From contig CAWIGG010000002.1 of NCBI GenBank assembly GCA_963835575.1, forward strand, positions 512,001 through 576,000: DNA of 64,000 nt. Direction: 5' to 3'. Below are positions 10,918 to 56,761 of this stretch, piece by piece. The position numbers and the translations under genes were made by a program. Under the pieces are notes generated by a model. It saw only the letters and a list, made by a program, of their open reading frames with translations, did not search any database and was not told the DNA's origin. Source of the stretch: an uncultured Spirochaetota bacterium (GTDB lineage Bacteria; Spirochaetota; Brevinematia; Brevinematales; JAOACQ01). Position 1 is the first letter of the stretch. Each line of letters begins with the position of its first letter.

Positions 10918-13900
10918 TTGAAAAAAAATACCTGTTCCTGTATTATTACCTTAAGCTTGCTATTCTTACAAACATTTTGTTTTTCTTTAACAAACATGTC
11001 CAGTTCCTCTCAATTCACTGCATTATCGAACAGTTTATCCAATACAATCAGTCCGGGCTTATCCAATGCTGTCAGTCCGGGAACAAATATAATCTTTATG
11101 TTTTATGATCCTTTTCTGCCTCTGGAGGATATTGAATCGCCGGACGATCTCAAGCTTTCCATAGCCCGCTTGTTTTACCCTGTTGATGATTTACTTTTTG
11201 AAAAGCGGGAACCGAAGTTTGCCTTAAAAAGAACACTTTCAAAAGGATTGAAGCTGTTAACTGAGGAAGATCTAAAACTTTATTCTGAACAGGCTTTTAT
11301 CAGGCAAAATCAGCAGGGCGCGCCGAAAAGGCTTGAATTTTCCGAAGAGGAAAAAAAGCATCTCAGCTTTGGTTTTGAGCAATGGGAAACTAAAGTAATT
11401 GTAAGCGGCGGCATAAATCTGCAGACAGGCTACGGCTGGTCTTTAAAAGATGAGAATTTTCCCAATTCACCCTCCGGTATTCCTCTGGGATTTAATATGA
11501 ATCAGAATATGAGGGTTAATATTGTCGGTAAAATAGGAGAAAGGGTCTCTGTCAATATCAATCATAGTTCCGATAATCCGGATAATGAATATGAAATTGC
11601 GTATAAAGCGCTGGATGCGGATGAAGGGATATTAAGGGAGCTGCGGGCCGGAAATATTTCGCTTAATATTCCCCAATCAAGCTATTTTGTGAAATATGAC
11701 GGAACAAGCAAGGACAGTTATGGTTTAAAAGCCGTTTTTAAAGCAGGGGATGTTGATATACAAACAGTCTTAAGCCTCACAAAAAGCCTGAGAGGGTACA
11801 AAAAATTTATCGGGAACAGACAGGAGCAAAGATTTGAGCTCCAGGATGTGAGTTATGTAAAGAGAAAATATTATCTCCTTCCGGATACTCAGATTGACTA
11901 TGGAAGTCTTGAGCTTCTCTCCTCAACAAGTCTGACAAACCTGGCAACCCGCAGGATTGATTCTCATTATTTTATCCGGTTGATTGAAGGGAAAGATTAT
12001 TTTATTAATAATAATACGGGAGAACTGACACTGACCAATACGCTCGACAGGAATACGGACCTGGTTGTCAAATATACGAGAAGCGGCATGATGTTTACGA
12101 CAAACTCATTGAGTATAGTCGGCCAGGATGATAATACCGGGGAAAAGTTCCTGTACCTCTGGAAAGCGGTGATGAATTTTTCGCCTTATATCCATTACGG
12201 CTATTATTCACTGCCTTACAGAAATTTTGACACAACAAGAGGTTTTTCCCTGACCGTCGTCTATACAGCTGATAAGTCGAAATTATCGGACCTTCAATTC
12301 AGTTCATATGATTATCTCATTTCTTCCTTGAATGGGACCATTCAGTTTAAAAACAAACTCCCTTTTCCAGATCTTAATGGATCAATTTATTCAAATGCGA
12401 ATGATCCTTCCTCAATAGATTCTGTTAATACAATGGTTATTGTTTTATTTAATGAAGTCGGCACTTACCAGCTGGATTTCGGAATAATCGGGGGGACAGA
12501 GCGTGTTTATGTAAACGGCAGGCTCCTTTCACCTTCTGAATATACCCTGGTTTATTCTCTGGGGGAACTTGTTTTTAATAATTCCGCCATTATCAATGAA
12601 AATGATACAATAGAAGTTTATTACGAGTACAAACCCTTCTGGGCCGGTTCGCAGAAATTCAGCATTGCCGCCCGTATGGATTATAAACCTTCAAATATTT
12701 TCAATCTGGGCAGCACGCTTGTTTACAATATAGCTCAGCGTGACGTCGGAGCTCCGCATATTGAGGCAACGCCGGAAGGAGTATTTATGTCGGATCTGGA
12801 CGGGACCCTCAATATTGCTCGGGCTTTAAAGCTTCCCGACGATTTTGAGTTTACCCTGAAAGGGGAATATGCGTTATCGGTCGTGGACCCGAATATTGCC
12901 GGTTATGCCATAATTGAGGATTTTGAAAACTCAGGCGAATCATTCGGTTTTTCTAAAACAGAAAACAACTGGATTCTCTGTTCTCCCTGCACAAATATTC
13001 CGGGCATCTATTATACAAACCGGGGACAGCTTCTTTATAAAGACTACAGGGCGTATAATCTGGACGGGAGTTATTCAATGCTTTATTATTCGGCATATTT
13101 ATCCCCGGATAAAATTAAGGACTATTCATTCAAACCGGGGCCTTATATGACGCTGGGCGGACATCTCAATTCCGCGCTCTATCCGGATGTAAACCAGTCA
13201 TCCCTGGTTTTTGATTATGATTTCCGCCAGGGGGGAGATTGGGTCGGCGCCGTACTTCCTATTGCCGGCTCTTCAGGGATTGATTTAAGCCTGTATAATC
13301 AGATTTCCGTCTGGGCTTACCTTCAGAGTGATAGTGCCGGGGATAATAATTATTCTGATGATACAGGAGCCTCAGTTGATTTATATGTTGTCGCGGGGAC
13401 TTTGAACGAGGATAGCGACGGAGACGGGATTTTAGAAGGAGAAGTTGATCGTTCCCAGCCCGGGTATGATTTTCATAATTATCTCAATAAATCAATTGTG
13501 GAAACAAAAGTCGGAAGAGGGAGGCTTGGGGAAGGGGATGGTTATGAACAATCTGAGGATATAAACCGTAACGGCGTCTTGGACACAAACGAGGATGTGG
13601 TTGTTTTTCCCGGTATAGAAGGTTATACGGATATTACAAATGCTTCGGTTAACGGCGGCGGCTGGCAGAAAATAACAATTAATATTCAGTCGCTGTCGCA
13701 GAGCCAGATCGCGGCGCTTGAACATTCCAGCGCGCTGGCCGTTTATATAAAAAAGAAGAACGGATTAAAGGGCAGGGTAATTATTGATACTTTGGAATTT
13801 AAAAAAGTCAACTGGAATGAAAAAAGAATTGACGGATTCAGTGCCGATGATTCAAAAGTGTTTTCGGCTGAAATCCTCTCGGTATTGAACAATCCTTTTT

Positions 13901-16593
13901 ATTCGGCCAACCGTTTTTATAGAGTACAGTCCGGCGACAGCAGTGTTCAGGCGAGGGCTGATATTTTTGAAAAGCTCCATGGCCCGAAAACAATTGCGGA
14001 AGCCAACCAGTATGATGAAAAAGCCATGGCTCTTATTTATCATCTTTCAAATACAGGTTATGATACCAATTCTTCTTCAGGAGGGACTTCGGCAGTACTT
14101 GTCAAAAGAAATTTAGTCGCATATGATATTTCCCAATACCACTATTTGAATTATTATATTTATATACCGGATACGGATGAAAACGGCGATGCTCTAAAAA
14201 TTACCGGCGATACTTATTCAAATGAAAATTTTATTTTTGTTGTGGGCAGTTCTGACAATAGTTATTATAAATGGCGCATACCGCTGAGCTCTATCGCAAA
14301 AAACAAGTGGATACCGGTACAGATAAAGATATCTGAAGGTCTTTTAATGGAGGTGGATGGGAATCAGATCGGAGGTTATGAAAAGCCGGTATCAGTGGGA
14401 TACCCCAATCTGATTGATGTGAATTTTCTGGAAATCGGTGTTGAGCTTTCATCTACTAATGAACCGGTTAACAACGGTATTATATGGGTTAATGAAATGT
14501 ATACTTCATCAGATGTGAATAAAATAGGAACGGCATATTATATAAATCCGGTAATTGAATATAAAAAACCGCTGTTCAGCGTTGGCGATATTGAAATCCT
14601 TGGTCCTCTTTCGCTTAAAGGCACTTATGAAAACAGGGATTTGAATTTTATATCCGCCGAGGGAGCGACAACAGGAAGCTATAATAATAATTTGAGCATT
14701 GCCTATCTTTCAAGTGTTTTGAAAGATGTCAATTATGGAATATCTATGAGCGAGAATAATCAGGGTACCGCGACAAATATTATTCAGATGCCCCTCTACC
14801 TGCAGTGGAACAGCACAAGGCAGACTTATAACCATTCCATCAGCTACGGCGGCAAAAACTTTATGCCCACTATTTCTCATTCTTTTACCGAAAGCTTTGA
14901 TTACTTGCTTTCCAGGAACTTGGTCAATTCGTCTTCAAATGACAGTATTATCGGCTTATTAAATAATCAGTACTCCAGTTCCGCAAAGCTTGATTTGAGT
15001 CAGAATTTAAATATTTTAAGCCTGTTTGTTATCACTCCCAGGGTCGGCTTTGAAGATTCTTATTATTTAATTGATAATTCCAGCTTTACAAATGAAGAAG
15101 ATAAAAGTTATCTGACAAACAGCGGTGCCTATGGGATGAAAGATTTAAAAAAAACCCTTTTGTCGGGCCTGGGTTTATCAATCTGGGTTCTTAATCTTTC
15201 CGGTGAATATACTCATTCAGAGGAAAAATATGATAAAGTCCTGGATAGCGCGGGGTACAGAAAGGATATAGAAGATTTAAAACAGCTTTCAATGTTTGAG
15301 CGCTATTATCAAAGGCTGAGAAGCGCGTCTGAAGGGTTTTATTTTGTTGATGAAAAATTTGATATGCAGAATTCAGATTCTTACTCGATTATATTTTCAG
15401 GAGATAGACCGGTATCATTGTTCAGCTGGTGGCTCAATGATAAAATTGGAAGGAATGCGCAGGAATATAATTATCAGTCTGACGGAAGCCTGTATTCCCG
15501 TCTGGAAATGTATAATCTGCTGAGCGATTTTAAATTATCCATCTATCCAAAATTTATAATAGACACATTTATTTTCAAGATCAGGAGAACCCTTGGAACC
15601 AGCTATACTTCTGCCGTCCAGTCTATTTATTATACAAATATATTAAACTCATTCGGCCGGATTTATTATGACCAGCCTTTTAATTATTCTGATTTATTCT
15701 CAGGTACAGCCGGAAGGACAAACAGCCTTAATCTGGTAAAAGAATATTCCGCGCCGGATTACAACAGCGTGGTCAATTATAATGATTATCTGGAATTTGA
15801 ATTAAATCTTCCTGAAATGAAAAATGTGCTGGACACATTTGTTCCGAAAAGATATTTCCTATCAACTTCGCTATCCACAAGCAGAAATCTCAGTTCTTAT
15901 TCTCAAAGTCATGAGAATCTATTCTTATTATCTTTTCCCATAAAAATTTCTGAATGGGGAATTAATGATCCGGCTAATCAGGCTTTTAGAATAGGGGATA
16001 TTACAATTGATTTGAGTACCAAAAATGATGTCAATTTTAATGATAGATCGGTTATTAATACAGTCGCTGCCGGGATCAGCGAGCCTTTCTTTTTCAGTAC
16101 AAACGCGAATTTATTAATTAAATACAGTCTGGCGTATAGTTCGGAAGATTATTTGCAGAATGCGGAGGAATTTGAAAAGGATTACGGGTTTACCGTGGAT
16201 GCCACCAATTATTCGCCGATGCAGAAGTACAGCCATACTGCCGGAATCGTTTATAACTGGCTTATTCCCAATGTAAAAGAAGTCAATCTTCTATTATTTA
16301 AAATCAAGCTGGCCGGTTATACAGTCAATAATCAGGAGGGATTGACTTATACAGCGGATTCGATTTCTTATCAGGGATACCGTTTCATCCAATTTACTCA
16401 AAAGATTTATGAAATTACTCTGGACCATAATACACAGTTTCAATTTTCCGATTTTGTAAAAGGCGGTATAATATTAAAAGCTGTTTTTAATCAATATGCG
16501 GAAATCACCCCGCTTGATAATTCGATTAAGACTTCATACTTCAAGCCGGGTTTCGGTTTTCTTGCGGCTATTGACGTGAAGATCACATTTTAA
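10918..16593 (+). CDS. Very large outer-membrane protein resembling SprA/Sov (type IX secretion translocon)
   Basis: Signal peptide MKKNTCSCIITLSLLFLQTFCFS; SprA-like blocks in order (QNMRVNIVGKIGERVSVNI, RELRAGNISL, YGLKAVFKAG, ERVYVNGRLL..EYTLVYSLGELVF, IIEDFE, EDINRNGVLD, GIIWVNEM); beta-strand-rich C-terminus ending in VKITF. Confidence 0.75.
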   Translation: MKKNTCSCIITLSLLFLQTFCFSLTNMSSSSQFTALSNSLSNTISPGLSNAVSPGTNIIFMFYDPFLPLEDIESPDDLKLSIARLFYPVDDLLFEKREPKFALKRTLSKGLKLLTEEDLKLYSEQAFIRQNQQGAPKRLEFSEEEKKHLSFGFEQWETKVIVSGGINLQTGYGWSLKDENFPNSPSGIPLGFNMNQNMRVNIVGKIGERVSVNINHSSDNPDNEYEIAYKALDADEGILRELRAGNISLNIPQSSYFVKYDGTSKDSYGLKAVFKAGDVDIQTVLSLTKSLRGYKKFIGNRQEQRFELQDVSYVKRKYYLLPDTQIDYGSLELLSSTSLTNLATRRIDSHYFIRLIEGKDYFINNNTGELTLTNTLDRNTDLVVKYTRSGMMFTTNSLSIVGQDDNTGEKFLYLWKAVMNFSPYIHYGYYSLPYRNFDTTRGFSLTVVYTADKSKLSDLQFSSYDYLISSLNGTIQFKNKLPFPDLNGSIYSNANDPSSIDSVNTMVIVLFNEVGTYQLDFGIIGGTERVYVNGRLLSPSEYTLVYSLGELVFNNSAIINENDTIEVYYEYKPFWAGSQKFSIAARMDYKPSNIFNLGSTLVYNIAQRDVGAPHIEATPEGVFMSDLDGTLNIARALKLPDDFEFTLKGEYALSVVDPNIAGYAIIEDFENSGESFGFSKTENNWILCSPCTNIPGIYYTNRGQLLYKDYRAYNLDGSYSMLYYSAYLSPDKIKDYSFKPGPYMTLGGHLNSALYPDVNQSSLVFDYDFRQGGDWVGAVLPIAGSSGIDLSLYNQISVWAYLQSDSAGDNNYSDDTGASVDLYVVAGTLNEDSDGDGILEGEVDRSQPGYDFHNYLNKSIVETKVGRGRLGEGDGYEQSEDINRNGVLDTNEDVVVFPGIEGYTDITNASVNGGGWQKITINIQSLSQSQIAALEHSSALAVYIKKKNGLKGRVIIDTLEFKKVNWNEKRIDGFSADDSKVFSAEILSVLNNPFYSANRFYRVQSGDSSVQARADIFEKLHGPKTIAEANQYDEKAMALIYHLSNTGYDTNSSSGGTSAVLVKRNLVAYDISQYHYLNYYIYIPDTDENGDALKITGDTYSNENFIFVVGSSDNSYYKWRIPLSSIAKNKWIPVQIKISEGLLMEVDGNQIGGYEKPVSVGYPNLIDVNFLEIGVELSSTNEPVNNGIIWVNEMYTSSDVNKIGTAYYINPVIEYKKPLFSVGDIEILGPLSLKGTYENRDLNFISAEGATTGSYNNNLSIAYLSSVLKDVNYGISMSENNQGTATNIIQMPLYLQWNSTRQTYNHSISYGGKNFMPTISHSFTESFDYLLSRNLVNSSSNDSIIGLLNNQYSSSAKLDLSQNLNILSLFVITPRVGFEDSYYLIDNSSFTNEEDKSYLTNSGAYGMKDLKKTLLSGLGLSIWVLNLSGEYTHSEEKYDKVLDSAGYRKDIEDLKQLSMFERYYQRLRSASEGFYFVDEKFDMQNSDSYSIIFSGDRPVSLFSWWLNDKIGRNAQEYNYQSDGSLYSRLEMYNLLSDFKLSIYPKFIIDTFIFKIRRTLGTSYTSAVQSIYYTNILNSFGRIYYDQPFNYSDLFSGTAGRTNSLNLVKEYSAPDYNSVVNYNDYLEFELNLPEMKNVLDTFVPKRYFLSTSLSTSRNLSSYSQSHENLFLLSFPIKISEWGINDPANQAFRIGDITIDLSTKNDVNFNDRSVINTVAAGISEPFFFSTNANLLIKYSLAYSSEDYLQNAEEFEKDYGFTVDATNYSPMQKYSHTAGIVYNWLIPNVKEVNLLLFKIKLAGYTVNNQEGLTYTADSISYQGYRFIQFTQKIYEITLDHNTQFQFSDFVKGGIILKAVFNQYAEITPLDNSIKTSYFKPGFGFLAAIDVKITF

Positions 16594-16937: not shown

Positions 16938-19475
16938 TTATTCGATATTAACACAGATAATACAGACGTCATCCTGGAAGTCATCGCTCCCATGAAACTC
17001 AACAAGTTTGAGATAAGTTTCAGCCACAAATATATTGGCGGGAGTTTTCTGAAATTTAAGGAAAGTCTCCTGGAGAGAAGCGGACTCAAAATCTTCGTCC
17101 ATATTTTTCTGATTGACAGCTTCAGTCAAACCGTCGGTATAAAGGATCAGCTTGCTTCCCGGTTTAAGAGAAATAGTCTGATTCTGGTAACCCTTCTGCA
17201 TTTTCAGCATTAATTCATTGCTGAGAATTGCGAGGGGAAGGCCCCGCCTGTAGGAGGATATCTGTTCAATCTTATTGTCGCGGATAATATAAGGCATATT
17301 ATGGCCTGCATTGGCATAAATGAATTCTTTAGAGTCGAATTTGTAAATCCCGTAAAAAGCAGTGGCAAAATTATCGCCGGTCTGATTAATCAGGGATTCG
17401 TTCAAAAGCTGCAGGAGAAACGCCGGATTATCCTGAAGCAGGCGCGTCTGAAGGATATTACTTTTAACCATTGATGTGACGAAAGCCGCAGGGACCCCAT
17501 GCCCTGAAACATCACTCACAAAGATTCCCACCCAGTTTTTTTCCCTGAATTCCAGGAAATCAAAAAAATCGCCCCCGATTTTTTCCATGGGTTTATAACA
17601 GAAAGCGATGTTGGGTTTGGGGCTTTTTGCAGGGATAAGCTGGGATTGTATCCGGCGCGCAAGGAGTATATCGTTTTCCATCTCCAGATTTCTTTTTTTT
17701 AACTCATACTGCTCTTCTTCCAATTGCGACATCAGCTGGATCCTTATAAAAGTATTGCAGATGGACTGTGTGAGAAATTCATAAATATTTCCGTATTTTA
17801 AATCAAGTTCATAGACAATATACCCGTACTGGTCTTCCAGATAAAAGAGAGGTGTGGCCATATAGGTATGCCGCCTGTGCTGGTCGTAGTACTCCTGCGG
17901 AATAAAATCGAATGGGCTGACGGGATTATTGTTTATTTTAATGAGTCTTGTGTTTGTTTTGATGTCAAAGGCAAGGGATAGATTGACTTTACCAGGAAAT
18001 TGCCATTTTTGATTTCTTTTATGTCTTATAATATTATCATAAATAAAAACATAACAGGATGTGAGCGTCAATTTGGGAAAGTTTAGAGCGATATTATTAA
18101 ATAATTCTTCCTGTGTGAAGGATGTTTGAAAAGTATTAATGACATCGCGGTTTTTCAATTCAAGCCTTTCTCTCTGGATTCTTTCGGTAATCTGAATACT
18201 GAGCTGAATGTCCTGGATAATATTAAAAGCAGATTGAAAAAGTCGGTCGATTTCCTTTTTCTGCTCAGAAATCTTATTTATATAGCAATAGAGGATATTA
18301 AGGATACCAGGCCAGAATGAAATATTAATTCCCTCTTTCTTCTGGATATTGAGTTTTTTATTAAGCTTTTTTAGAAAAACTGTAATATTATCTTCTGTCA
18401 GATTTTTATCTTCGAGAATAAGAAGCAGGTCATCAAGCAGGTCGCTGACAGAAAATGATTTCGGACCGATAAAATCTGTTAAATCTATAATCTTACGGAT
18501 TTCACTATAGAGTTTTACCCTGTCTGCTTCTTCCCCGCAATGAGATGTTTTTTCTTTTTCATCCGTATTGATGGATCTGAAGATCTCGGCAGAGCTGCTG
18601 AAGCATCCGCAGGAAGAACGGATGAGAAGCGAGGTGGGGAGAATGACTTCCGGCGGGACATCTTTCCCGTTGATAATGTCAAGGGCCAGCTCTACAGCCT
18701 TTTTACCCTGCTGATAGATCGGCTGCTTAATGGTGGTGAGCGGCGGTGATACGATTTCGCAGTCCATAATATTATCGAAACCGATAACAGCCGCTTCATC
18801 CGGCACATCGATGCCGCGGCGGGATAATTCATTAACAGCTTCTATGGCCATAGTGTCGTTCGCGGCGATTAAGCCGTCAAAAAAAGCCTTCCGGTAATCC
18901 AGCAGTTCTTTGACGGCATTGCGTCCTGAGATTTCATCAAAATTACCGGGAACAATAAGATTATCGTCGGCTTTTATTCCATATTTACGCATACTTTCAA
19001 TATAAGCTTTTAACCGGATTTGAGCTTCCTCGTTATTTTCCGGTCCGCTGATAAAGGCTATTTTTTTACGATGGTGCACAGAGACTAAATGTTTAACCGC
19101 CTCTTCAATTCCATTGGAATTATCAACAAGAATGCTGGGAATATTCTTGAGAGGAATTGACAGGCTGATGAGCGGAATGTCCTTGAGATTTTCAATGAAA
19201 GTGTAAAAATTCTCCTTTGTGCTGTAATTGCAGAGCGTTCCGGATGCAATGATCAAAGCATCGAGATAATCGGGGCGCATTAAATCATAAATAACGTTAA
19301 GCTGGTATCCGTAGCTGTAAGGATTATACAGAGCCTCTCCGCGGAATATAATAATATCCGCGTCTTTTTCCTGGGCCATGTCCAGCACGCCCTGCCAGAT
19401 AAGTTTGGGGTATTCTTCATGTAAATTTGTGATCTGCAGGCCAATGGTCGGCCTTCTTTTATTCTGCTTGAACAT
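16938..19475 (-). CDS. LacI-type sugar-binding domain fused to SpoIIE/PP2C phosphatase
   Basis: KIAFISGP, AANDTMA, VIGFDN, PPLTTIKQP, RSSCGC; C-terminal IGGDFFDF, DVSGHGVPAA, YTDGLTEA, QDDV; no HTH or TM segment. Confidence 0.9.
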   Translation of the reverse strand: MFKQNKRRPTIGLQITNLHEEYPKLIWQGVLDMAQEKDADIIIFRGEALYNPYSYGYQLNVIYDLMRPDYLDALIIASGTLCNYSTKENFYTFIENLKDIPLISLSIPLKNIPSILVDNSNGIEEAVKHLVSVHHRKKIAFISGPENNEEAQIRLKAYIESMRKYGIKADDNLIVPGNFDEISGRNAVKELLDYRKAFFDGLIAANDTMAIEAVNELSRRGIDVPDEAAVIGFDNIMDCEIVSPPLTTIKQPIYQQGKKAVELALDIINGKDVPPEVILPTSLLIRSSCGCFSSSAEIFRSINTDEKEKTSHCGEEADRVKLYSEIRKIIDLTDFIGPKSFSVSDLLDDLLLILEDKNLTEDNITVFLKKLNKKLNIQKKEGINISFWPGILNILYCYINKISEQKKEIDRLFQSAFNIIQDIQLSIQITERIQRERLELKNRDVINTFQTSFTQEELFNNIALNFPKLTLTSCYVFIYDNIIRHKRNQKWQFPGKVNLSLAFDIKTNTRLIKINNNPVSPFDFIPQEYYDQHRRHTYMATPLFYLEDQYGYIVYELDLKYGNIYEFLTQSICNTFIRIQLMSQLEEEQYELKKRNLEMENDILLARRIQSQLIPAKSPKPNIAFCYKPMEKIGGDFFDFLEFREKNWVGIFVSDVSGHGVPAAFVTSMVKSNILQTRLLQDNPAFLLQLLNESLINQTGDNFATAFYGIYKFDSKEFIYANAGHNMPYIIRDNKIEQISSYRRGLPLAILSNELMLKMQKGYQNQTISLKPGSKLILYTDGLTEAVNQKNMDEDFESASLQETFLKFQKTPANIFVAETYLKLVEFHGSDDFQDDVCIICVNIE

Positions 19476-19497
19476 TTAAATATTTTAACCTCGAATT

Positions 19498-21813
19498 TTA
19501 TGTATCCGCGGGCTTTTTTTTCTCTTTATTATTATAGAGATCTTTATCAGCCAGAGCGAGAAGCGTTTCAATATCTGTTGATTCCCGGCCGTTGAATTCT
19601 GAAATTCCGAAACTCATGTCAAGAAGATAAGGCAAAGGTTCGTTTTCATTAAATTTCTTAATGTTAAGGTTGATTTTATTCTTGATTTTATCCAGATTTT
19701 CAATAGGAGTGTCCGGCGTTATTATCACAAATTCATCACCGCCGATACGCGATATGATATCTGACTTACGGAATGTTGTCTGCAGTATTTTCACGGCGCT
19801 GCGTAAGGCCCGGTCGCCTTCGCTATGCCCGTATTTGTCATTGATCTTTTTCAGACCGTCCATATCGGCGAAAAAGATAAGGAAATTCCTGCCTGCACGG
19901 AGGGCAAGGTTTTTCTGCTGTTCGGCAAATGTAAAAAACCCCCTTCTGTTGTAAAGGCCTGTTAATTCATCGATGATAGAAAGATTCTCAAGCTTTTTAT
20001 TGGTGTCCTCCAGTACAAGAAGGGTTGATTTGAGCTTTTCTTCAACCTCCAGCCGCTCATGATAAAGAATACTGCTCATGATAACACTGCTGATCTGGGA
20101 GGTCAGGGTTTCAAATATTACATTATTTTTCGGTTCAGACTCATAAACAGCGAAACCGAAGTTTTCTTCCCTGAAAACAAGAGGTTCAATTAGAAAATCC
20201 AGCTTGCCTTTGTTAAAGATTTTGTTGATTTTGGAAAAATCCTCAAAAAAAGTTTTCTGGTAAAATTCCTTCTGCATATTTATCAGATCAAGCTTGACGC
20301 CGTTATGATAAGCCGCGGTCAGGTAAAACTTTTTAGAAAGAAGCTCTTTGCATCTTTTCCCTGCCACCGCCTCTTTATAGATAAACATAAAAAAAGTTTT
20401 GATATTAAGCCTGGGAAGCTCCTGCATAACTATGTCTGCAAGCTTCTGCATATCATAAAGAGTGATGATAGTACCGCTGACGATGCGCAGGGTCTCGGAC
20501 TGTTTTTCCTGCTGGATCATCTTTAATTTTGGAATCCTGTAAGCGAAATGGGCAATAAGAAGAAACGCCGAATCCCAGAGAACTGTCGCGGATTCAATAT
20601 CATCCTTTTCTTCAAGAAATTCATGGGTTTTTGTCCTGAATGATGAAACGACGCCGTGCCAGAATAAAATATTATTATCAGACTCAACGGTCTCATTGAG
20701 TATTAAAGACAAGCTGGGACAAAAACTTTTGGCCGGGTTTCTTTCTTCAATATCTTTAATAAATGCATCAAAAAGCATATTCAGTCTGTTTTCAATATAT
20801 TGTTTGTCTAATGATGTGTTGAATTGGTCAATTATAGAGGTAATTATTTCATTTTTGTGCTGTTTAATCCCGGACAAACCGGAAAAATTGAGATTGTTTT
20901 TTAAATGTTTATGAATAAATTTTGTCTGTGAACAGCCGCAGGATTCCCGCACTATCAGTTCTGAATTGAGTGTCTTTTTAATGGGGATAATTTCTCCCCT
21001 GAGCGATTTAATCAATATTTCAACCGAGGCATACCCCAGTTGTTTTATGGGTGATTTTATGGTAGTAAGCGAGGGCGATGAAACCGCCGTTTCTTCAATA
21101 TCGTCATATCCGCCTACAGCTATTTTATCGGGTATGGATATTTCCCTTTTTTTCAACTCTGCCATTGCACCCAGGGCCATATTGTCATTAACGCCGATGA
21201 TTGCATCGATTTCCATTTTTTTTTCATCGAGAAGATATTCGACGGCCCTTTTACCGGATTCCGGCATAAGATCGCCGATTATAACCATTTCAGGATCAAA
21301 TTCAATATTATTTTCTTTTAAAGCATCCAGATAGGCACTAAAACGGTCTTTCATTTCCGGCAGACCCAGCGGTCCGCGTATAAAAGCTATCCTTTTTTTA
21401 TGATGGTAATTAATAAAATGATTGACCAGCTGCTTCATGCCTGAATAATTTTCTTCAACAACGGATGTGATATCTTCCATAGGCCTTCCAATACTGATAG
21501 TGGGAATAGGGGAAAAATGAAGATGGAATGATTTAAATTCATCGATACTGATAAAACTTCCCACACAAGTTATAATGATAAGCCCGTCAAAGTAGTCCGT
21601 TTTAATCAGGTTATAAACGGAATTCCTTCTTTTTTCATAAATGTTTACAGGCGAATGTTCCAGCGTACCGCCGCAGATGGCAATAAAATCGATATCATTT
21701 TTCCTGGCGGCTTCCGATGCTCCCTCCCAGATCAGCGTCTGATATTTACCAATGCTGATTATATTGTCAGTTAGAAATCCTATTTTTAGGCGGGGCTTGT
21801 TTCTCAAAGCCAT
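19498..21813 (-). CDS. LacI-type sugar-binding domain fused to GGDEF diguanylate cyclase
   Basis: RIAFIRGP, VNDNMALG, VGGYDD, RESCGC; DELTGLYNRR, RKSD I-site, GGDEF. Confidence 0.9.
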   Translation of the reverse strand: MALRNKPRLKIGFLTDNIISIGKYQTLIWEGASEAARKNDIDFIAICGGTLEHSPVNIYEKRRNSVYNLIKTDYFDGLIIITCVGSFISIDEFKSFHLHFSPIPTISIGRPMEDITSVVEENYSGMKQLVNHFINYHHKKRIAFIRGPLGLPEMKDRFSAYLDALKENNIEFDPEMVIIGDLMPESGKRAVEYLLDEKKMEIDAIIGVNDNMALGAMAELKKREISIPDKIAVGGYDDIEETAVSSPSLTTIKSPIKQLGYASVEILIKSLRGEIIPIKKTLNSELIVRESCGCSQTKFIHKHLKNNLNFSGLSGIKQHKNEIITSIIDQFNTSLDKQYIENRLNMLFDAFIKDIEERNPAKSFCPSLSLILNETVESDNNILFWHGVVSSFRTKTHEFLEEKDDIESATVLWDSAFLLIAHFAYRIPKLKMIQQEKQSETLRIVSGTIITLYDMQKLADIVMQELPRLNIKTFFMFIYKEAVAGKRCKELLSKKFYLTAAYHNGVKLDLINMQKEFYQKTFFEDFSKINKIFNKGKLDFLIEPLVFREENFGFAVYESEPKNNVIFETLTSQISSVIMSSILYHERLEVEEKLKSTLLVLEDTNKKLENLSIIDELTGLYNRRGFFTFAEQQKNLALRAGRNFLIFFADMDGLKKINDKYGHSEGDRALRSAVKILQTTFRKSDIISRIGGDEFVIITPDTPIENLDKIKNKINLNIKKFNENEPLPYLLDMSFGISEFNGRESTDIETLLALADKDLYNNKEKKKPADT

Positions 21814-25165: not shown

Positions 25166-26455
25166 TTAAAAACGGCTGCTTATTGTGACAAAATTTACTT
25201 TTAGTTCGTTATTAAAAGAAAGAGAATCTGAGAACTCGATTTTAGGAATAAAACTGATTTTGCTATTGTAATTAAAATAATAAATGGGGGCTCCGATCAG
25301 ATCGAATAAATATCCCAGTGCAAATAAGCCGATGCTGCCGTAAGTGAGAGCTTTATATGCATCGGGATCGGTAATGATATTTTCTTTTGCGCAGTATTGT
25401 GTGCCCAAAAAAACCGCGGCTGAAAAAAAAGATATGCCGAGGACTGTAAACCCTCCTCCGGCATCCCCGACAATAAAATGCGCCAGCCCGCTGCCTGGGA
25501 GACAGAGGCCGGTAATTCCTCCGATTATTAAGTTCTTTAGAGGTATTATAGTATTTCTTTCTGAAACGGGAGGTTTATGCAGGGTAGAGTCGTTCTTATT
25601 TTCATTTTCTGATTGAGAGCTGTCTGATTCTTTATTCTTACTTTGAGACTCCATATATTTTGTTTTATTTTGCTTTACTCTTTTTATCGTTTGGTCCAGG
25701 GTCTCTTCATCAGAATCTGGAATATTTTGATCGTCAGTATTTGTATTTAAGTTTGTAATATTTTCTGTGCTCAATGAATCATCAGTTTTATTAGTGCTGA
25801 CAGATGAGCCCTGCATATTATTTAATTGATTTGATTCTTTCATATTTTTGACAAAAACTTTTATCTTTTCTAAAAAGTAATGAATGGTAGAATCGATTGA
25901 AAATGAACTCGCGGGATTATTATTAACAGCCGGAGGATTTTCTAATGCGGTTTGATCGACTGCTCTTCCATGTACCATATTATTTATCAGCAAACTGCAG
26001 GTATAAGATAAATCCGATAAAGAAGAAGCTTCTCCTGTATCTCCGTATTCCATTATACCTGACTGGACATGTATCATGCGCATATTGATGTAATATTTTT
26101 TGTCTAAAAGATTCACAGTGCCGAGCATTATTTTTTGAGCGGAAAGAAATTCGCCGATTTTAACTGCGTAATCATTGCCGCTTAGACCGGAAAGCTGGAG
26201 CTTTTTTTCCTCGAGTATTTTTTTCATGTCCTTTCTTTCCAGGATTTTATATTTGCCTGTTTTGAAAATTTCGATACGTATCCTCTCTGTTACAAATTCA
26301 GCAGTTTCAGGATCAACACCTTTCTTCGGCTCAAAATCTATTATGGCTATTGGAATCTGGTCATTAGGCCCGTTTTCAGCGAAGATAAAGCTTTTTACAG
26401 AAATAAGAATAAATACAGAACTAACTAATATGAGTATCTTTTTATAGGAATCCAT
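25166..26455 (-). CDS. Exported protein with CsgG/TolB-N-like domain, low-complexity linker and hydrophobic C-terminal region
   Basis: Signal peptide; IAIIDF...YKILERKDMKKILEEKKLQLSG...VKIGEFLSAQKIMLGTV pattern; GGAGG RBS. Confidence 0.75.
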   Translation of the reverse strand: MDSYKKILILVSSVFILISVKSFIFAENGPNDQIPIAIIDFEPKKGVDPETAEFVTERIRIEIFKTGKYKILERKDMKKILEEKKLQLSGLSGNDYAVKIGEFLSAQKIMLGTVNLLDKKYYINMRMIHVQSGIMEYGDTGEASSLSDLSYTCSLLINNMVHGRAVDQTALENPPAVNNNPASSFSIDSTIHYFLEKIKVFVKNMKESNQLNNMQGSSVSTNKTDDSLSTENITNLNTNTDDQNIPDSDEETLDQTIKRVKQNKTKYMESQSKNKESDSSQSENENKNDSTLHKPPVSERNTIIPLKNLIIGGITGLCLPGSGLAHFIVGDAGGGFTVLGISFFSAAVFLGTQYCAKENIITDPDAYKALTYGSIGLFALGYLFDLIGAPIYYFNYNSKISFIPKIEFSDSLSFNNELKVNFVTISSRF

Positions 26456-46764: not shown

Positions 46765-48439
46765 TTGCCTGTCGGTTATTTCATTTTCGGAGTCAAACCA
46801 GCCCCTTACAATAAGCGGGCAAATAAAAATTTTGTCAGCTTAGCTGATTTTAATAATAAATTTCGAATAATCGATACTCAGACTATACAAAATCCTCTCT
46901 ATTTTCTCAAATATTGGGCATATTTCATAAAATTATGCGCAAGGGATACCCAGCATAGCTCCAAATTCACTTTCCGTTGACCTCTGTAAACTGTCTGAAC
47001 ATAACCCTTCTGTGTTTTGATGTTTGAAAATACGTGTTCTTTACCTATCCTGCGGTTGTATATCTTTTGCCCTTCTTCGCTGTAAAGTTTTGTTAAATAA
47101 GCATCAATCTTAGACCGATTATTCAATTCAAACTCACTGAAAATTACTGTCTTTTGCTGTGTTTTCGGTTTGATGTTTTTATAACACTCACTGAAAAATG
47201 GACATCTTTCACAGCCCTTCCGTGAATACAAAAATGTATATCTTTGGTTATTTCGATCTAAATACCCATTTTCCTTACGGCCGCCCCGGCATCCCAGGAT
47301 ATATTCGTCATCAATCTTTTCCAGTTTAAAGTCTCTTCGCTTCTGTGATTTATCACTGAAATCCCGCTCTTTCGTATCCACATAAAGGTCTTTTCCTTCC
47401 TCCACCATCCGGATTGTCTCTTCCATGTCCTGAAAACCCGAATCAAAAAGGTATTTGCTAGCCTTATCAACTTTTAATTCCGCTTTTTTCTGTTCCACCC
47501 TCTTTACCATTTCTTCCGTATGCTGTTTTTCCGGTGTTGTGATTGCTTCAAAATCTATAATCACATCATTATTACTGACCATCATCGCCGAATTATATCC
47601 CTGTATAAACACACTATGCGGATTTCCAGACATCAGCTTGCTTTCGGGATCAGTCAGGTTGGTGAATTCTTCGTCTGTCTTTTCCCCTCTCTCTACCTGT
47701 TTTTTGTATTCATCGATTTGGTTCAAAACACTATCGTAAATCTTTTTCCGCCTTGATACCCGCTTCTTCTCCGCTTCGTAATAAGGCTGCTCCAGCTTGC
47801 CTTCCCGGTAAGATTCTTCCAGTTCCAGGTCTTGTTTCACAATCTTTTCCGCCATCTTCTGGTAAGTGTCCATCAGCTTCCGGGTATGTTTCTTTCCCAC
47901 ATTCTTATTCTTACTCGCGTAGGCCTTGATCTTTGTGCCGTCACCCACTACCATGTCCCAATCTATAGACCCCATTTCGTTGAGTATATATAAAAGCTGG
48001 CTGAACAACTCCTCGATCTTTTCCTGAAAAAGTACCTTGAACTCGCAAATTACCGAATGGTCAATTTTCAGCCGGTTTGAAACATACATAAACCCAATGT
48101 GTTTTTTCAGCAAATCTTCTATCTTTCGGCTGATACGATTTCCCGTAATGTAACCGTAGAGTACCGCACAGATCACATCCCGAGGATTTTTAATCTCTCT
48201 GCCTCTATGGTCGTTCTTATAGTAAGCCGCGAAATCCTCCAGTTTAATACGGTTTTTGATGAATTCTTTTAGTATAAATTCTCTGGAATTCTCATCAAAC
48301 TGCTCGCCTATATTGATCGCGAGGAACTCACCCTGCTCCAGGCTGTTCTTTTCAAATCTTGCCATCTTTTTCTCCCGTTTTATTTTAACGGGAACCCTGC
48401 CGTATGTCCATGAAGCATGTTATAAAAACCGACAGGCAA
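46765..48439 (-). mobile_element. IS1182-family insertion sequence, 1675 bp
   Basis: Perfect 13-bp TIR TTGCCTGTCGGTT / AACCGACAGGCAA; 4-bp TSD CATC at 46761-46764 and 48440-48443. Confidence 0.9.
46899..48365 (-). CDS. IS1182-family DDE transposase
   Basis: SRKIE, DGTKIKAYAS, NLTDPES, QGYN, FDSGF, YNRRIGKEHVFSNIK. Confidence 0.9.
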   Translation of the reverse strand: MARFEKNSLEQGEFLAINIGEQFDENSREFILKEFIKNRIKLEDFAAYYKNDHRGREIKNPRDVICAVLYGYITGNRISRKIEDLLKKHIGFMYVSNRLKIDHSVICEFKVLFQEKIEELFSQLLYILNEMGSIDWDMVVGDGTKIKAYASKNKNVGKKHTRKLMDTYQKMAEKIVKQDLELEESYREGKLEQPYYEAEKKRVSRRKKIYDSVLNQIDEYKKQVERGEKTDEEFTNLTDPESKLMSGNPHSVFIQGYNSAMMVSNNDVIIDFEAITTPEKQHTEEMVKRVEQKKAELKVDKASKYLFDSGFQDMEETIRMVEEGKDLYVDTKERDFSDKSQKRRDFKLEKIDDEYILGCRGGRKENGYLDRNNQRYTFLYSRKGCERCPFFSECYKNIKPKTQQKTVIFSEFELNNRSKIDAYLTKLYSEEGQKIYNRRIGKEHVFSNIKTQKGYVQTVYRGQRKVNLELCWVSLAHNFMKYAQYLRK

Positions 48440-49126: not shown

Positions 49127-49146
49127 CGAGAACAAGGATGTTCTCG
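49127..49146 (+). promoter_or_regulatory. CsrA-binding hairpin in the flaB leader
   Basis: Perfect 8-bp stem CGAGAACA-AGGA-TGTTCTCG with GGA in the loop; second GGA overlaps the RBS (CAAGGAGG). Confidence 0.8.
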
Positions 49147-49167
49147 AGTATTATCAAGGAGGATGGT

Positions 49168-50040
49168 ATGATTATCAACCACAACATCAGTGCCATTTTT
49201 ACCCAAAGACAGCTCTTTATTAACAACAGGGACAGCGACAAGGGCATTGAAAGGCTTTCTTCAGGTATGCGCATCAACAAAGCAGGCGACGACGCTTCCG
49301 GTCTTGCTGTATCGGAAAAAATGCGGAGTCAGATCCAGGGTTTAAAAAGAGCCCAGATGAACGTGATGGACGGGGTCTCTTTTCTTCAGACTGCCGAAGG
49401 TTATCTGGAGGAAACCCACACAATCCTGCAGCGTTTGAGAGAATTGGCGGTTCAGGCTTCCAACGGAATTTACAGCACGGAAGACAGAATGCAGATCCAG
49501 GTGGAAGTTTCCGAGCTTATCGCCGAAATTGACAGGATCGCTTCTCATGCTCAGTTCAACGGTATGAACCTGCTGACCGGAAGGTTTGCACGTCCTACAG
49601 GTGAAAACACTGTTATGGCCAGTATCTGGCTGCATGTCGGCGCGAATATGGACCAGAGGATCAGATTGTACATTGGTACAATGGGTTCTCAGGGCCTTGG
49701 CTTAAAATCTCCTGTTGGTAACGCTGCAACAGCATCTTTTGTCAGCTTGAGCACACCGGACAAGGCGAATATGACAATCGGTCTGGTTGACCTTGCTCTG
49801 ACCAAAGTATCCAAGCAGAGAGCGGATATGGGCGCTTACCAGAACAGACTTGAAAAGGCTTCTGTCGGTTTATTGGTCGGTTATCAAAACATGCAGTCCG
49901 CTGAATCCAGAATCAGAGACTCGGATATGGCAGAAGAGATGTCCTTCTTTGTCCGGTCGCAAATTCTGTCTCAGGCCGCTACTGCTATGCTTTCTCAGGC
50001 AAATCAGAAACCGCAGATGATGCTCCAATTATTGAGATAA
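49168..50040 (+). CDS. flaB: Flagellar filament core protein FlaB (spirochaete type)
   Basis: [49 protein letters not shown]; 290 aa without large variable domains. Confidence 0.96.
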
Positions 50041-50083: not shown

Positions 50084-51366
50084 GGGCGGTTTGAAAAACC
50101 CACGTATCATATACAAATAGTATATAAAAACATATAATCATAGTCAAAAAAAACAGAGGTAAGGCTATGACAAAAATTAAGCGGAAAGACCGTAACTTGT
50201 TTGAATATCAGGAGCGGATGGAAAAGCTAAGCAGCGTAAAAACACCGCTGGATAAGCTTAACAGGGTTGTAGACTTTGAGATGTTCCGGCCGCTGTTAAC
50301 AGAGATTTTGGCGCCGAAAGAGCAGAAGGCGCCGGGTGGAGCGCCACATTATGACTATGTTTTCATGTTCAAGATACTGATATTCCAGAGGTATTACAAT
50401 CTTTCCGATGAGCAAGCGGAATTTCAGATCAATGACAGGTTATCCGTTCAGCGATATCTTGGGATAACACTTTCGGACAAAGTTCCGGACTACAGTAAAA
50501 TCTGGGAATTCAAGGAAAAACTGATGAAAGCGAAAGCAATAGAGAAACTTTTTAAAATATTCGATGAGAATCTTGAGAATAAAGGTGTGATAGGGAAAGC
50601 GGGCGTTATGGTAGACGCAAGTTTTGTGGATGTTCCCCGGCAGAGGAACAGCCGCGAAGAAAACAAGAAAATAAAAGAAGGCGAGGTTCCGGAAGATTGG
50701 AAAGATAATACGCATAAGCTTTCCCATAAAGACACGGATGCGCGCTGGATGACCAAGAATAAAGAGAGGCATTACGGATACAAAAACCATACAAAGGTTG
50801 ATGTGAAGTCAAAACTTATTCGTTCTTATGCACGACAGATGCGAGCGTTCACGATTCACAGGTAGTTGAACCTCTATTGAATGAGAAAGACAAAGGGAAG
50901 CCGTTTTACGCGGACAGCGCATATGTTGGCCCAACGGTAGCAGGAATATTAGAAAAATTTGAGATGAAAAACCGGATTCACGAAAAAGGATACAGAAATA
51001 AGCCATTGACGGAGAAGCAGAAAGAAAAAAATAGAAGAAAGAGCCGCATCCGAGTTCGTGTTGAGCATGTTTTTGGTTTTGTTGAAAATAGTATGAACGG
51101 CAGTACAATACGATCGATAGGAAAAGAAAGGGCAGAGAGCCAAATCGGGCTGATGAATCTGGTTTATAATTTAGCACGGTATGTTGTGGTAAAAGGTCGA
51201 ATTGCGTCTTGTGCGGCTTAAAATGCAGAAGATATGGATAATATTGCCCGTGTTTGCCTGAATTTTGGTAATAGAAACAGTTTTTAACCTGTTGGCAGAA
51301 ATATTTTGAAAATATTTTCTATTATCAGGAAAGTGTTGATAAATTAGACGGTTTTTAAAACCGCCC
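50084..51366 (+). mobile_element. IS5-family insertion sequence, 1283 bp
   Basis: 17-bp TIR GGGCGGTTTGAAAAACC / GGTTTTTAAAACCGCCC (1 mismatch); 4-bp TSD TTAT at 50080-50083 and 51367-51370. Confidence 0.9.
50167..51221 (+). pseudogene. IS5-family transposase with a 1-nt frameshift near 50832
   Basis: YNLSDEQAEFQINDRLS, VDASF, KDTDARW, YGYKNH; continues in the other frame as TTDASVHDSQ...YADSAY...RIRVRVEHVFG. Confidence 0.85.
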
Positions 51367-55303: not shown

Positions 55304-56608
55304 TTATCTATATACTTCAACTTGGTCAAAATAGAGACTGTAATCACCGAGCCTTCCGCCTTCTTCAATGCCGACGCTGCAGAGCCTTATCTCTCTGATT
55401 GGAAAATCCATAATTCTATTATAAACAGCGCCGTAAGGGCTATAGAGGCGGGTCCTTCTCATCTTTTCAAAAGGAATAGTAATCCTTTTCCAGCCGTCCC
55501 AGCCTCCACTAACACGATAAAAAAAGACTTCGCCGCCCGCATCGATAACATACAAAACATAATTTTTATATTTTAAATTACCGGCAACCCACATACTAAG
55601 TGCCTTGTATCCTTCCCAGGAACCCTGCTTTGGTGTAAGTTTAAGGCCGGCTCCTCCAGAATTACCTTCAACACTTATGGTTACAGAAAGTGCCTTTTTC
55701 CCTTCTTTAATATTTAGATTAGGAAGATTATTAATTATTGAATATGTTACTGAATCTACTGTCCAGCTATAAGAAAATACAACGACTTTTTGTGAAGGGT
55801 TGTCCTCAAAACCGGTAATTAAAATGCTATTTGTCATAAAACCGATATTTGTTGTTTCACCAGCCTTTAATTGGCATGTATTATTTAATACTGTAACATC
55901 GTCGCTTAATCGATGGAGCCTGATTTTATATTCTGTGTCGGAAAGGATTTTTGTGTTCAAAGAAAAACTGCTGTTCGACGGTTTAGCGACCAACCTGTCA
56001 TTAATATAGAGTTCGTATTCCTCCGGGGCGATTTTGAAATTGCCGAAATTGAGAAAAGCGATTCTCTTATCTTCCTTCAGAATTGCTTTTACTATTTTTG
56101 AAGATATATCATCTATTGAATCAAATATTTCTTCATCGGTTGGGATTTTATAATCGTTTGATATGACGCTTTTTGTGATTTTACTCCATATAAAAAGATG
56201 AACAGTGGCTTCAGGGCTGGATAAACTTCCTTCCAGCATATAACTCCCATAAACAATGAAATCCGCGTTATATCTCTCTGCAATATCAGAAGGATTAAGA
56301 TTATTTATTTCTTGAAGCTCTGATTTATCCGGAACCTCAAGAGTGGGAAGAATGGATAGAAAGCTGTAAAAAGCGTTGAAAAGTATTGTTTTTAGAAGAT
56401 CGGGTTTTTTAAACTTTGTTTTCGAAGAGATATATTCAAAAGGAAAAATAACCGCTTTATATTTTTTTATTTCCACGATTTTTGTTTCTTCTTCTTCAAT
56501 TGCAAAATACTTGTTTTCATCTTTTACAGCGCTGCCGCCGGAACAGGAAAAGATCATTAAAATGCAGAATAAAGATGATAATACAATAATAGTATTTTTA
56601 AAAAACAT
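55304..56608 (-). CDS. Lipoprotein with TolB-N/CsgG-like domain and C-terminal carbohydrate-binding-like (CBM11/CIA30-type) domain
   Basis: Lipobox MIFSC; VIFPFE...ADFIVYGSY; ITGFED, WEGYKALSMWV, WDGWKRITIPF, YFDQV. Confidence 0.7.
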   Translation of the reverse strand: MFFKNTIIVLSSLFCILMIFSCSGGSAVKDENKYFAIEEEETKIVEIKKYKAVIFPFEYISSKTKFKKPDLLKTILFNAFYSFLSILPTLEVPDKSELQEINNLNPSDIAERYNADFIVYGSYMLEGSLSSPEATVHLFIWSKITKSVISNDYKIPTDEEIFDSIDDISSKIVKAILKEDKRIAFLNFGNFKIAPEEYELYINDRLVAKPSNSSFSLNTKILSDTEYKIRLHRLSDDVTVLNNTCQLKAGETTNIGFMTNSILITGFEDNPSQKVVVFSYSWTVDSVTYSIINNLPNLNIKEGKKALSVTISVEGNSGGAGLKLTPKQGSWEGYKALSMWVAGNLKYKNYVLYVIDAGGEVFFYRVSGGWDGWKRITIPFEKMRRTRLYSPYGAVYNRIMDFPIREIRLCSVGIEEGGRLGDYSLYFDQVEVYR

Positions 56609-56761
56609 AAAAACATCCTCCATTTGCAGTTTAGTACAATATTATAATAATTATCGTCAATATATATCTCATTTAAAAAGTATTAAAATAGATTTGTAAT
56701 ATTGATTTTATAATAAATGTTGTTTAAAATATTTAAAATTTTGATTGATAGGACGGTATTT

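Follow-up and report, generated by a model that had tools for sequence, protein, structure and literature searches.

The T9SS (type IX secretion system) exports protein cargo by way of the outer-membrane translocon SprA (Sov), and three reports, as far as their accessible text goes, restrict it to the Fibrobacterota–Chlorobiota–Bacteroidota (FCB) group or to Bacteroidetes (PMC12398890, PMC11205867, PMC4793230). According to the available portion of PMC12618676, cargo with type A C-terminal domains (CTDs) share one PorV, and type B cargo use cognate shuttles that are encoded directly downstream and are probably not recycled. The accessible text of PMC12635249 infers an origin of the T9SS within the gliding machinery, and a one-sentence BLAST observation in the available part of PMC11705866 reports that Ignavibacterium and Melioribacter have SprA, PorV and Plug but no other T9SS proteins. 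Here we describe an SprA/Sov-like translocon gene in a 64,000-nucleotide window (positions 512,001–576,000 of contig CAWIGG010000002.1) of the genome of an uncultured spirochaete, together with candidate cargo and carriers that are encoded elsewhere in this genome and across Spirochaetota.

The 1,891-amino-acid (aa) open reading frame (ORF) is a full-length SprA/Sov homologue. A profile built from 101 homologues matched F. johnsoniae (Flavobacterium johnsoniae) SprA (PDB 6H3I) with an E value of 2.7e-67, placing profile positions 40–1443 on SprA 3–1891. The protein itself matched the SprA model TIGR04189 with E 4.8e-25 and 87.1 bits, short of the curated cut-off of 200 bits, and the best-matching stretch comprises residues 134–321. 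Searched alone, it had no Pfam match, SprA_N included, and no PDB match in a single-sequence search, which accounts for the gene's annotation as hypothetical. A search with residues 155–1201 retrieved 836 representative proteins at E ≤ 0.001. The pore protein family is already known, and the SprA_N labels carried by 12–75% of the members of ESM Atlas clusters near the translocon weigh against full novelty. A first-pass annotation, made from the sequence, had recognised an SprA-like ORF here, and its particulars hold up: the frame opens with TTG on the forward strand, and all of the motif blocks that it listed occur in its order, at residues 197, 239, 268, 355, 528, 542, 665, 701, 832, 880, 1188 and 1887. 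The proposed Sec signal peptide looks like one by inspection, with signal-like N termini at the same place in several close relatives; the acidic loops, calcium-loop-like by sequence, are conserved across the 101 homologues; and the terminal residue is Phe in 21 and Ile in 3 of the 24 rows of alignment A5, as expected for an aromatic or hydrophobic β-signal. Of the profile similarity to SprA that had been expected, the TIGR04189 and profile–PDB matches bear it out, and a Pfam SprA_N match does not appear. The database gene call begins 26 codons downstream (P0156, 1,865 aa).

The translocon lies above the 1,200-aa folding limit and was therefore modelled with AlphaFold as two half-models with 40-row alignments: residues 140–1211 (predicted local distance difference test (pLDDT) 85.1, predicted template modelling score (pTM) 0.55) and residues 1180–1891 (pLDDT 88.2, pTM 0.77). 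For the N-terminal half, the top four Foldseek matches are SprA (E 5e-43 to 1e-27; next match, 4e-10), and the VIA alignment to SprA 133–1525 covers 601 residues with Z 16.2 and a root-mean-square deviation (rmsd) of 5.7, the first non-SprA match reaching Z 12.5. SprA also takes the top four Foldseek places for the C-terminal half, by a thin margin (E 4.5e-7 to 1.5e-5; next match, 3.3e-5), and the alignment of this half to SprA 1516–2401 is the longest of its VIA matches, at 554 residues. Taken together, the models therefore span SprA from end to end. A manual count of long strands in the DSSP assignments of the two half-models gives 11 + 25 = 36, which is a count and not a closed barrel; turns after even-numbered strands are shorter (median of 5 versus 13.5 residues), and the final Phe falls on the periplasmic side. 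Large insertions follow predicted strands 7 and 11, and these two cap insertions align to the SprA cap in the half-models. The second insertion also matches CBM11, both by profile (E 0.0016) and by structural alignment (Z 12.5, rmsd 2.9, 153 residues aligned). As modelled, the strand count appears unchanged from that of SprA despite the shorter chain. The protein had been described as about 500 aa shorter than SprA with a diverged C-terminal half; it is about 510 aa shorter, but the loss is spread over both halves, with approximately 340 residues missing from the N-terminal half and approximately 200 from the C-terminal half. The poorly conserved segment that precedes the barrel corresponds to the N-terminal part of SprA that SkpA binds in F. 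johnsoniae, as described in the accessible text of PMC10994853.

The host is a Brevinematia spirochaete and not a member of the FCB group. Its genome (G000; 4.39 Mb, 94% complete, 0.93% contamination) carries the window on a 2.05-Mb contig, the translocon gene has a G+C content of 0.393 versus 0.394 for the window, and a flagellin gene is present in the window. Five of the six close relatives of the translocon (45–56% identity) come from records titled Brevinematales, Brevinematia or Spirochaetota; the sixth (L005, 50% identity), from a 3.2-kb contig whose record is titled Omnitrophota, falls with Brevinematia sequences by identity and is likely misbinned. One relative is labelled Elusimicrobiota. 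In a quick-mode, unrooted tree of homologues (81 rows, 513 columns), from which no donor or direction is claimed, 12 rows of the host's own class form one side of a branch with support of 98 and 14 Bacteroidota rows form another (support of 100), and the spirochaete rows fall into several groups, none of them inside Bacteroidota. The titles of the relatives, the flagellin gene and the tree thus agree with the first-pass annotation that the host looks like a spirochaete, and they place the contig outside the FCB group.

The translocon gene stands alone, and its six nearest loci (L001–L006) have unrelated neighbours, for which reason the window neighbours were rejected as partners. A Pfam scan of the 46 window ORFs gave no porV and no gld/porKLMN match, as had been noted from the sequence, but this absence says little because the neighbourhood is not conserved. 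A 451-aa protein without a Pfam family and an accompanying FecR-domain protein, which adjoin the pore in 4 of the 12 loci read, were considered as a dedicated partner and rejected, the 451-aa gene being kept in 5/5 pore-less genomes tested. This pair also occurs in G000 and at L065, L066, L069 and L070, and in four divergent lineages its place is immediately downstream of the sprA-like gene; both proteins end in a β-signal-like tail, and the FecR protein has a similar C-terminal part.

The distribution of the pore was examined in 301 sampled Spirochaetota genomes, in which kin are not independent, so that the counts are patterns and not statistics. Profile A5 detected the pore in 119 genomes, representing 78 of 123 genera, and two large families were nearly devoid of it (0/54 in f15 and 1/37 in f20). 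The type A CTD model TIGR04183 matched 115 genomes: 82 had both pore and CTD, 37 the pore only, 33 a CTD only and 149 neither, and the pore was found in 45 of the 47 genomes with at least two CTD matches. The figure of 119 is a lower bound because a divergent-class profile (A8) finds the pore in genomes of family f22 that A5 missed; with A8, the pore was present in 45/81 genomes of f22 and in 13/13 retested of the 17 that had counted as CTD only. The same profile found no pore in nine genomes of genus g71, including a complete 1.1-Mb genome. A reduced family of 1,138 aa includes sequences labelled Treponema putidum, T. pedis and Treponema sp. OMZ 792. Its alignment to A5 spans 345 N-terminal columns (98.3%, E 1.5e-14); that to a class of 1,570–1,660 aa runs over its full length, interrupted in the second cap by one large deletion (E 1.5e-56). 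In f22, a dinB-like gene and the reduced sprA-like gene overlap at the end of the former; P0207 (1,967 aa) contains both IMS domains and a reduced-pore match, and many f22 frames are 1,950–2,110 aa long, which suggests fusion or read-through.

Both PorV-family barrels and CTD proteins, for which the first-pass annotation had looked to the rest of the genome, are present in G000. A profile made from 28 CTDs of neighbouring genes in other genomes (best reversed control, E 0.007) identified five proteins with a terminal CTD, of 416, 2,574, 2,600, 275 and 651 aa (E 3e-14 to 8e-8); TIGR04183 matches four of the five, three of these with at least 23 bits as tails. The first PorV-family barrel (carrier 1) scored 99.6 bits against NF033709 (cut-off of 90) and has TPR and CBM48 domains after the barrel. 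The second (carrier 2) scored 31.4 bits and matches PorV_fam (E 2e-8) and the PorP family (E 4e-8) about equally. In G000, the strict PorV equivalog NF033710 was not reached (32 of 250 bits). The gene for the 416-aa cargo overlaps the start of the carrier 1 gene, and the tandem 2,574- and 2,600-aa paralogues (27% identical) are followed by the 420-aa, weaker PorV-family gene of carrier 2. A complex prediction for the carrier 1 barrel and the CTD of its neighbour scored 0.90, whereas the best of three controls scored 0.00; runs agreed in at least 95% of contacts, and the partner had a pLDDT of 89. The mark applied to this score was reached by 51/78 solved and 2/108 mismatched pairs. Carrier 1 and the neighbouring CTD are therefore predicted to bind, a result to be taken as likeness and not proof because PorV–CTD complexes have been solved (8GL6, 8GL8) and the pass may come from memorised structures.

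The 2,574/2,600-aa pair (L018, L019) has no known domain except the CTD, is conserved as a pair across the class and is duplicated in two complete genomes, and is a candidate surface layer or adhesin. The 416-aa cargo gene belongs to a six-gene cluster (L017) encoding exported-looking proteins with DUF11, FN3 and F5/8 domains, in which a CTD is confined to the product of the fifth gene, and the sixth encodes carrier 1 with its TPR and CBM48 domains; the other proteins of the cluster may be co-exported or assemble on the cargo. A 3,175-aa subtilase with many Ig repeats and a 3,602-aa Rhs protein ending in an M23 peptidase domain (L022, L023) were rejected as cargo, as neither has a CTD.

Cargo and carrier genes occur in pairs, and the losses of both coincide with that of the pore. 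Pairing was read in 40 top PorV-family matches, comprising 20 taken one per family and 20 paralogues from four expanded genomes. A same-strand, CTD-ended gene occupied 25 of 38 upstream ORFs and 3 of 29 complete downstream ORFs, 24 of the 25 calls being made by TIGR04183 at E ≤ 0.05 and one by the PorU CTD region; in the one-per-family subset, such a gene lay upstream in 11/19. First-look candidates for CTDs and PorV-family proteins rise together, at 66/63 in G004, 83/90 in G056, 53/66 in G033 and 66/52 in a fourth genome. Within the host's own class, the pore is present in 21 relatives and absent from 13, among them all four that share the host's genus. A CTD match was found in 20/22 pore-positive versus 0/13 pore-negative genomes, the C-terminal 900 aa of the giant cargo in 18/21 versus 0/13, and carrier 1 in 7/21 versus 0/13; one pore-less genome matches only an Ig stretch of the giant cargo (E 2e-6). 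The four same-genus genomes (G123, G130, G169 and G189; 94–96% complete) are without the pore, CTD matches, carrier 1 and the giant cargo, pointing to a recent loss of the whole system. Carriers without a CTD neighbour are mostly longer, at 390–610 aa with C-terminal extensions (L162, L165–L169, L175, L176); this class adjoins housekeeping genes (RNase PH, murB, mnmA) and is possibly a shared carrier or plug equivalent.

Components of the T9SS motor, ring and sortase were sought in pore-positive spirochaetes. In a panel of 57 of the 119 genomes, chosen to span families (55 of high quality), with seven Bacteroidota as controls, GldM, GldL and GldN over the cut-off were found in 0/57 spirochaetes versus 7/7 controls, with 1, 3 and 0 weak matches, respectively; ten single-contig genomes among the 57 likewise had no GldLMN match over the cut-off. 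GldK and PorU over the cut-off were found in 0/38 versus 7/7, and DUF6089, which we take to be the PorG family, in 0/22 versus 7/7. Short sub-cut-off PorU matches appeared in 7/38 genomes, in six of which they were confined to the CTD region of PorU itself. In G000, GldL and GldN gave no match at E ≤ 1 and GldM gave only E 0.095; partial GldK matches fell on FGE-domain proteins that lack the Arg-Gly-Cys-Phe motif and were not accepted as GldK. The spirochaete system is a T9SS-like core and not a canonical T9SS: no motor, ring or sortase protein passed the cut-offs in these genomes, and the host lies outside the FCB group.

Compared with the F. johnsoniae translocon (6H3I, 6H3J, 8GL6, 8GL8), the spirochaete system shares colinear full-length homology, a predicted 36 strands, two cap insertions, PorV-family carriers, type A-like CTDs at the cargo C termini and a predicted carrier–CTD interface. 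It differs in its shorter pore, which stays below the TIGR04189 cut-off and has no SprA_N match, in that no GldK/L/M/N, PorU or DUF6089 protein was detected in the spirochaete genomes searched, in its host, and in having several cargo-linked carriers, whereas the T9SS has one shared, recycled PorV. The type B CTDs with PorP/SprF shuttles, as set out in the available part of PMC12618676, resemble it in placing the carrier gene directly downstream of the cargo gene, and in a stoichiometric, probably non-recycled anchoring carrier, which we propose for the spirochaetes as well; unlike that system, the spirochaete tags match the type A model TIGR04183, the carriers match PorV_fam and no gliding track or PorG link is apparent. 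In the spirochaete system, type A-like tags and PorV-family carriers occur with gene pairing of the type B kind. The motor-less combination of SprA and PorV, presented as potentially novel in the first-pass annotation, is already in print for Ignavibacterium and Melioribacter (PMC11705866, available text); those hosts belong to the FCB group and have a reported Plug, and cargo pairing, co-loss and mechanism do not appear in that text. Spirochaete PorV/FadL-like barrels (UPF0164; Brachyspira BP951000_RS08455; five T. pallidum proteins) belong to the same superfamily as the carriers but, in the accessible text of a Brachyspira preprint and a T. pallidum modelling paper, are treated as transporters of the FadL kind and no SprA homologue is mentioned, whereas some of the carriers here are tied to CTD cargo and an SprA-like pore. 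No description of spirochaete SprA homologues was found in the literature, although subscription papers and supplementary T9SS survey tables could hold some; the accessible text of PMC13755416 and PMC9581022 likewise contributed nothing about distribution.

The system is very probably an exporter. The simplified secretion system that the first-pass annotation suggested is supported by the SprA homologue, the CTD cargo, the PorV-family carriers and the undetected GldLMN, from which we infer secretion. Our preferred reading, to which we assign a probability of roughly 0.55, is a stripped type 9-like exporter with motor-free release, in which the cargo is kept on a single-use carrier. Cargo and carrier would be expressed from a single operon and pass the inner membrane through Sec. 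The carrier barrel would then dock at the lateral opening of the pore, and the cargo CTD would bind the carrier loops inside it; in F. johnsoniae, the loading of cargo onto PorV inside SprA needs no energy (PMC10994853, accessible text). The carrier–cargo pair would leave the pore without a dedicated motor, by dissociation or by displacement by the next carrier, and the folding of long, repetitive cargo outside the cell could make release one-way. With no sortase, the CTD would remain uncut and the cargo would stay on its carrier as a single-use surface anchor; carrier genes would multiply with cargo genes because each carrier is used only once. The main conserved cargo in the class would be the tandem pair of surface proteins of approximately 2,570–2,600 aa.

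Several observations weigh against this reading. The release step departs from the only studied case, since in F. johnsoniae release from the pore needs motor energy, SprE and SkpA, as stated in the available text of PMC10994853. Profiles built from Bacteroidota can miss very distant motors, and SprE/PorW, SprT/PorT, Plug, PorD and Skp were not searched. The C-terminal half-model matches generic barrels as well as it does SprA, with SprA at rank 22 in the VIA search (Z 13.4, rmsd 11.0) and MtrB at the top (Z 15.8). In G000, the giant pair shares one carrier gene, next after the 651-aa lamin-tail CTD protein comes a 274-aa gene unmatched by any profile, and the 275-aa CTD protein is an orphan. 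Across the survey, in addition to the non-independence of kin, 37 of the 119 pore-positive genomes have no TIGR04183 match and 33 CTD-positive genomes have no A5 match; 13 of the 40 carriers have no CTD neighbour on the sequence examined; and PorV_fam is a poor marker, matching 224/301 genomes (77 over the cut-off). Moreover, PorV-like barrels and CTD-like Ig domains are found in settings other than secretion too: two G000 proteins (1,355 and 893 aa) fuse the one to the other, and a 1,377–1,386-aa version of the former persists in the pore-less sister genomes.

The main rival, which we consider less likely, retains the same pore, carriers and cargo and has an unrecognised motor power release, either a GldLM that has diverged past the reach of the profiles or a borrowed motor of the ExbBD, TolQR or MotAB type, which would pull on the periplasmic C-terminal arms of many carriers. 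The energy requirement in F. johnsoniae favours a hidden motor, as do the TPR and CBM48 domains after the barrel of carrier 1 and the length of many carriers (390–610 aa), and the accessible part of PMC11705866 notes that GldLM and MotAB, although alike in structure, share no sequence similarity, so that such motors can escape profiles. G000 has four MotA/ExbB-family matches, but the four pore-less sister genomes have 3, 5, 5 and 6 (counts, without an orthology test); the counts show no signal of a paralogue lost together with the pore, and that candidate was set aside. Furthermore, no motor-like gene is conserved beside the pore in 18 loci read, many cargo-linked carriers are bare barrels of 304–340 aa without an arm, and the GldK-like matches of G000 are the FGE-domain proteins described above.

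An improbable alternative is that the barrel has another job, such as uptake, an envelope scaffold or the assembly of barrel-tethered Ig proteins, and that the CTD- and PorV-like genes are unrelated envelope parts. The cap with its carbohydrate-binding-like folds fits such a role, and families f36, f29, f41 and f48 have the pore and a conserved carrier with few or no CTD matches; the 1,138-aa Treponema form has lost much of the cap. Structural roles for PorV-like barrels and CTD-like domains are seen in the barrel–Ig–OmpA fusions and in Lsa66-like proteins. By contrast, the C-terminal position of the CTD, its pairing with carriers, their co-expansion and co-loss and the predicted interface are what export would lead one to expect and an unrelated role would not. 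The fusion proteins themselves have an N-terminal PorV-like barrel and internal CTD-like Ig repeats, and the 1,355-aa protein, which has an OmpA domain at its C-terminal end, matches Leptospira Lsa66 (E 2.6e-119); they are probably tethers from the outer membrane to peptidoglycan, and the 1,355-aa protein was rejected as cargo because its repeats lie in the interior and genomes that lack the pore keep a protein of the same size. Finally, an ordinary T9SS sprA from an FCB organism, misbinned or recently transferred, with the rest missing from an incomplete assembly, is scarcely credible: although the genome is 94% complete and the Omnitrophota-titled contig shows that misbinning occurs in such records, the long contig with its low contamination and matched G+C content, the titles of the other five relatives, the separation of the own-class and Bacteroidota branches and the ten single-contig genomes without GldLMN all stand against it.

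Under the preferred reading, the stripped exporter is a simpler and possibly older form of the type 9 export machine. More tentatively, the pore, carrier and CTD may be an ancient, self-sufficient module of Spirochaetota and other non-FCB phyla, motor-free and with one disposable carrier per cargo, from which the Bacteroidota T9SS arose later by coupling to the gliding motor. If so, this order would reverse the published proposal that the T9SS evolved as part of the gliding machinery, and oral Treponema would keep a shrunken, 1,138-aa pore of the system. A phylum-wide, motor-less and sortase-less version in spirochaetes calls published views of the T9SS into question. It offers a candidate path by which spirochaetes could export very large surface proteins and a role for some of their PorV/FadL-like barrels, and it flags an unannotated large outer-membrane protein in oral Treponema. 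The four pore-less genomes of the same genus can be used for comparative genomics of whole-system loss.

Table 1. Positions of the translocon gene, its parts and other loci named in the text (window numbering unless a G000 contig or locus is given)
Feature	Position	Strand	Comment
SprA/Sov-like outer-membrane translocon gene	10918..16593	+	1,891 aa, TTG start; between MCP gene and opposite-strand SpoIIE gene
Probable Sec signal peptide	10918..10986	+	residues 1–23; inspection; like N termini in relatives
N-terminal periplasmic segment	10987..11388	+	residues 24–157; poorly conserved; weak alignment to SprA N terminus
Predicted barrel strands 1–7	11389..11781	+	residues 158–288; DSSP of AlphaFold half-model
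First extracellular cap insertion	11782..12654	+	residues 289–579; half-model; profile alignment to SprA cap
Predicted barrel strands 8–11	12655..12888	+	residues 580–657; DSSP of half-model
Second, large extracellular cap insertion	12889..14532	+	residues 658–1205; carbohydrate-binding-module-like β-sandwich folds
Conserved acidic loop motifs, calcium-loop-like by sequence	13411..13584	+	residues 832–889; consensus of 101 homologues
Predicted barrel strands 12–36	14533..16584	+	residues 1206–1889; half-model mean pLDDT 88.2; aligned to SprA 1516–2401
C-terminal β-signal with final Phe	16573..16590	+	sequence
Two adjoining sensor genes	16938-21813	-	
429-aa protein	25166-26455	-	
DDE transposase gene	46899-48365	-	
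Flagellin gene	49138-50040		
DDE transposase gene	50167-51221	+	split into two ORFs
439-aa protein	55304-56623	-	
416-aa CTD cargo	C2:630880-632130		overlaps start of 518-aa PorV-family gene (carrier 1)
Six-gene cluster with carrier 1	C2:625607-633683 (L017:3608-11684)		
2,574/2,600-aa tandem pair	C2:692590-708106 (L018, L019)		
1,355-aa barrel–Ig–OmpA fusion	C4:766958-771025 (L021:6959-11026)		
893-aa barrel–Ig fusion	C4:133869-136550		
3,175-aa subtilase and 3,602-aa Rhs protein	C4:1015891-1025418, C4:1029039-1039847 (L022, L023)		
451-aa and FecR-domain protein pair	C4:538460-541797 (L077:10461-13798)		
Reduced sprA-like gene of f22	L068:5685-9101, L067:3781-8490		

Other genes of the window were also read (Table 1). 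The two adjoining sensors downstream of the translocon gene each have a LacI-type sugar-binding domain, with a SpoIIE and a GGDEF output, respectively. The 429-aa protein has a weak CsgG/LpoB-like domain (E 4e-7), the 439-aa protein has a CBM11-like domain (E 1.3e-6), and the flagellin gene is flanked by the two DDE transposase genes.

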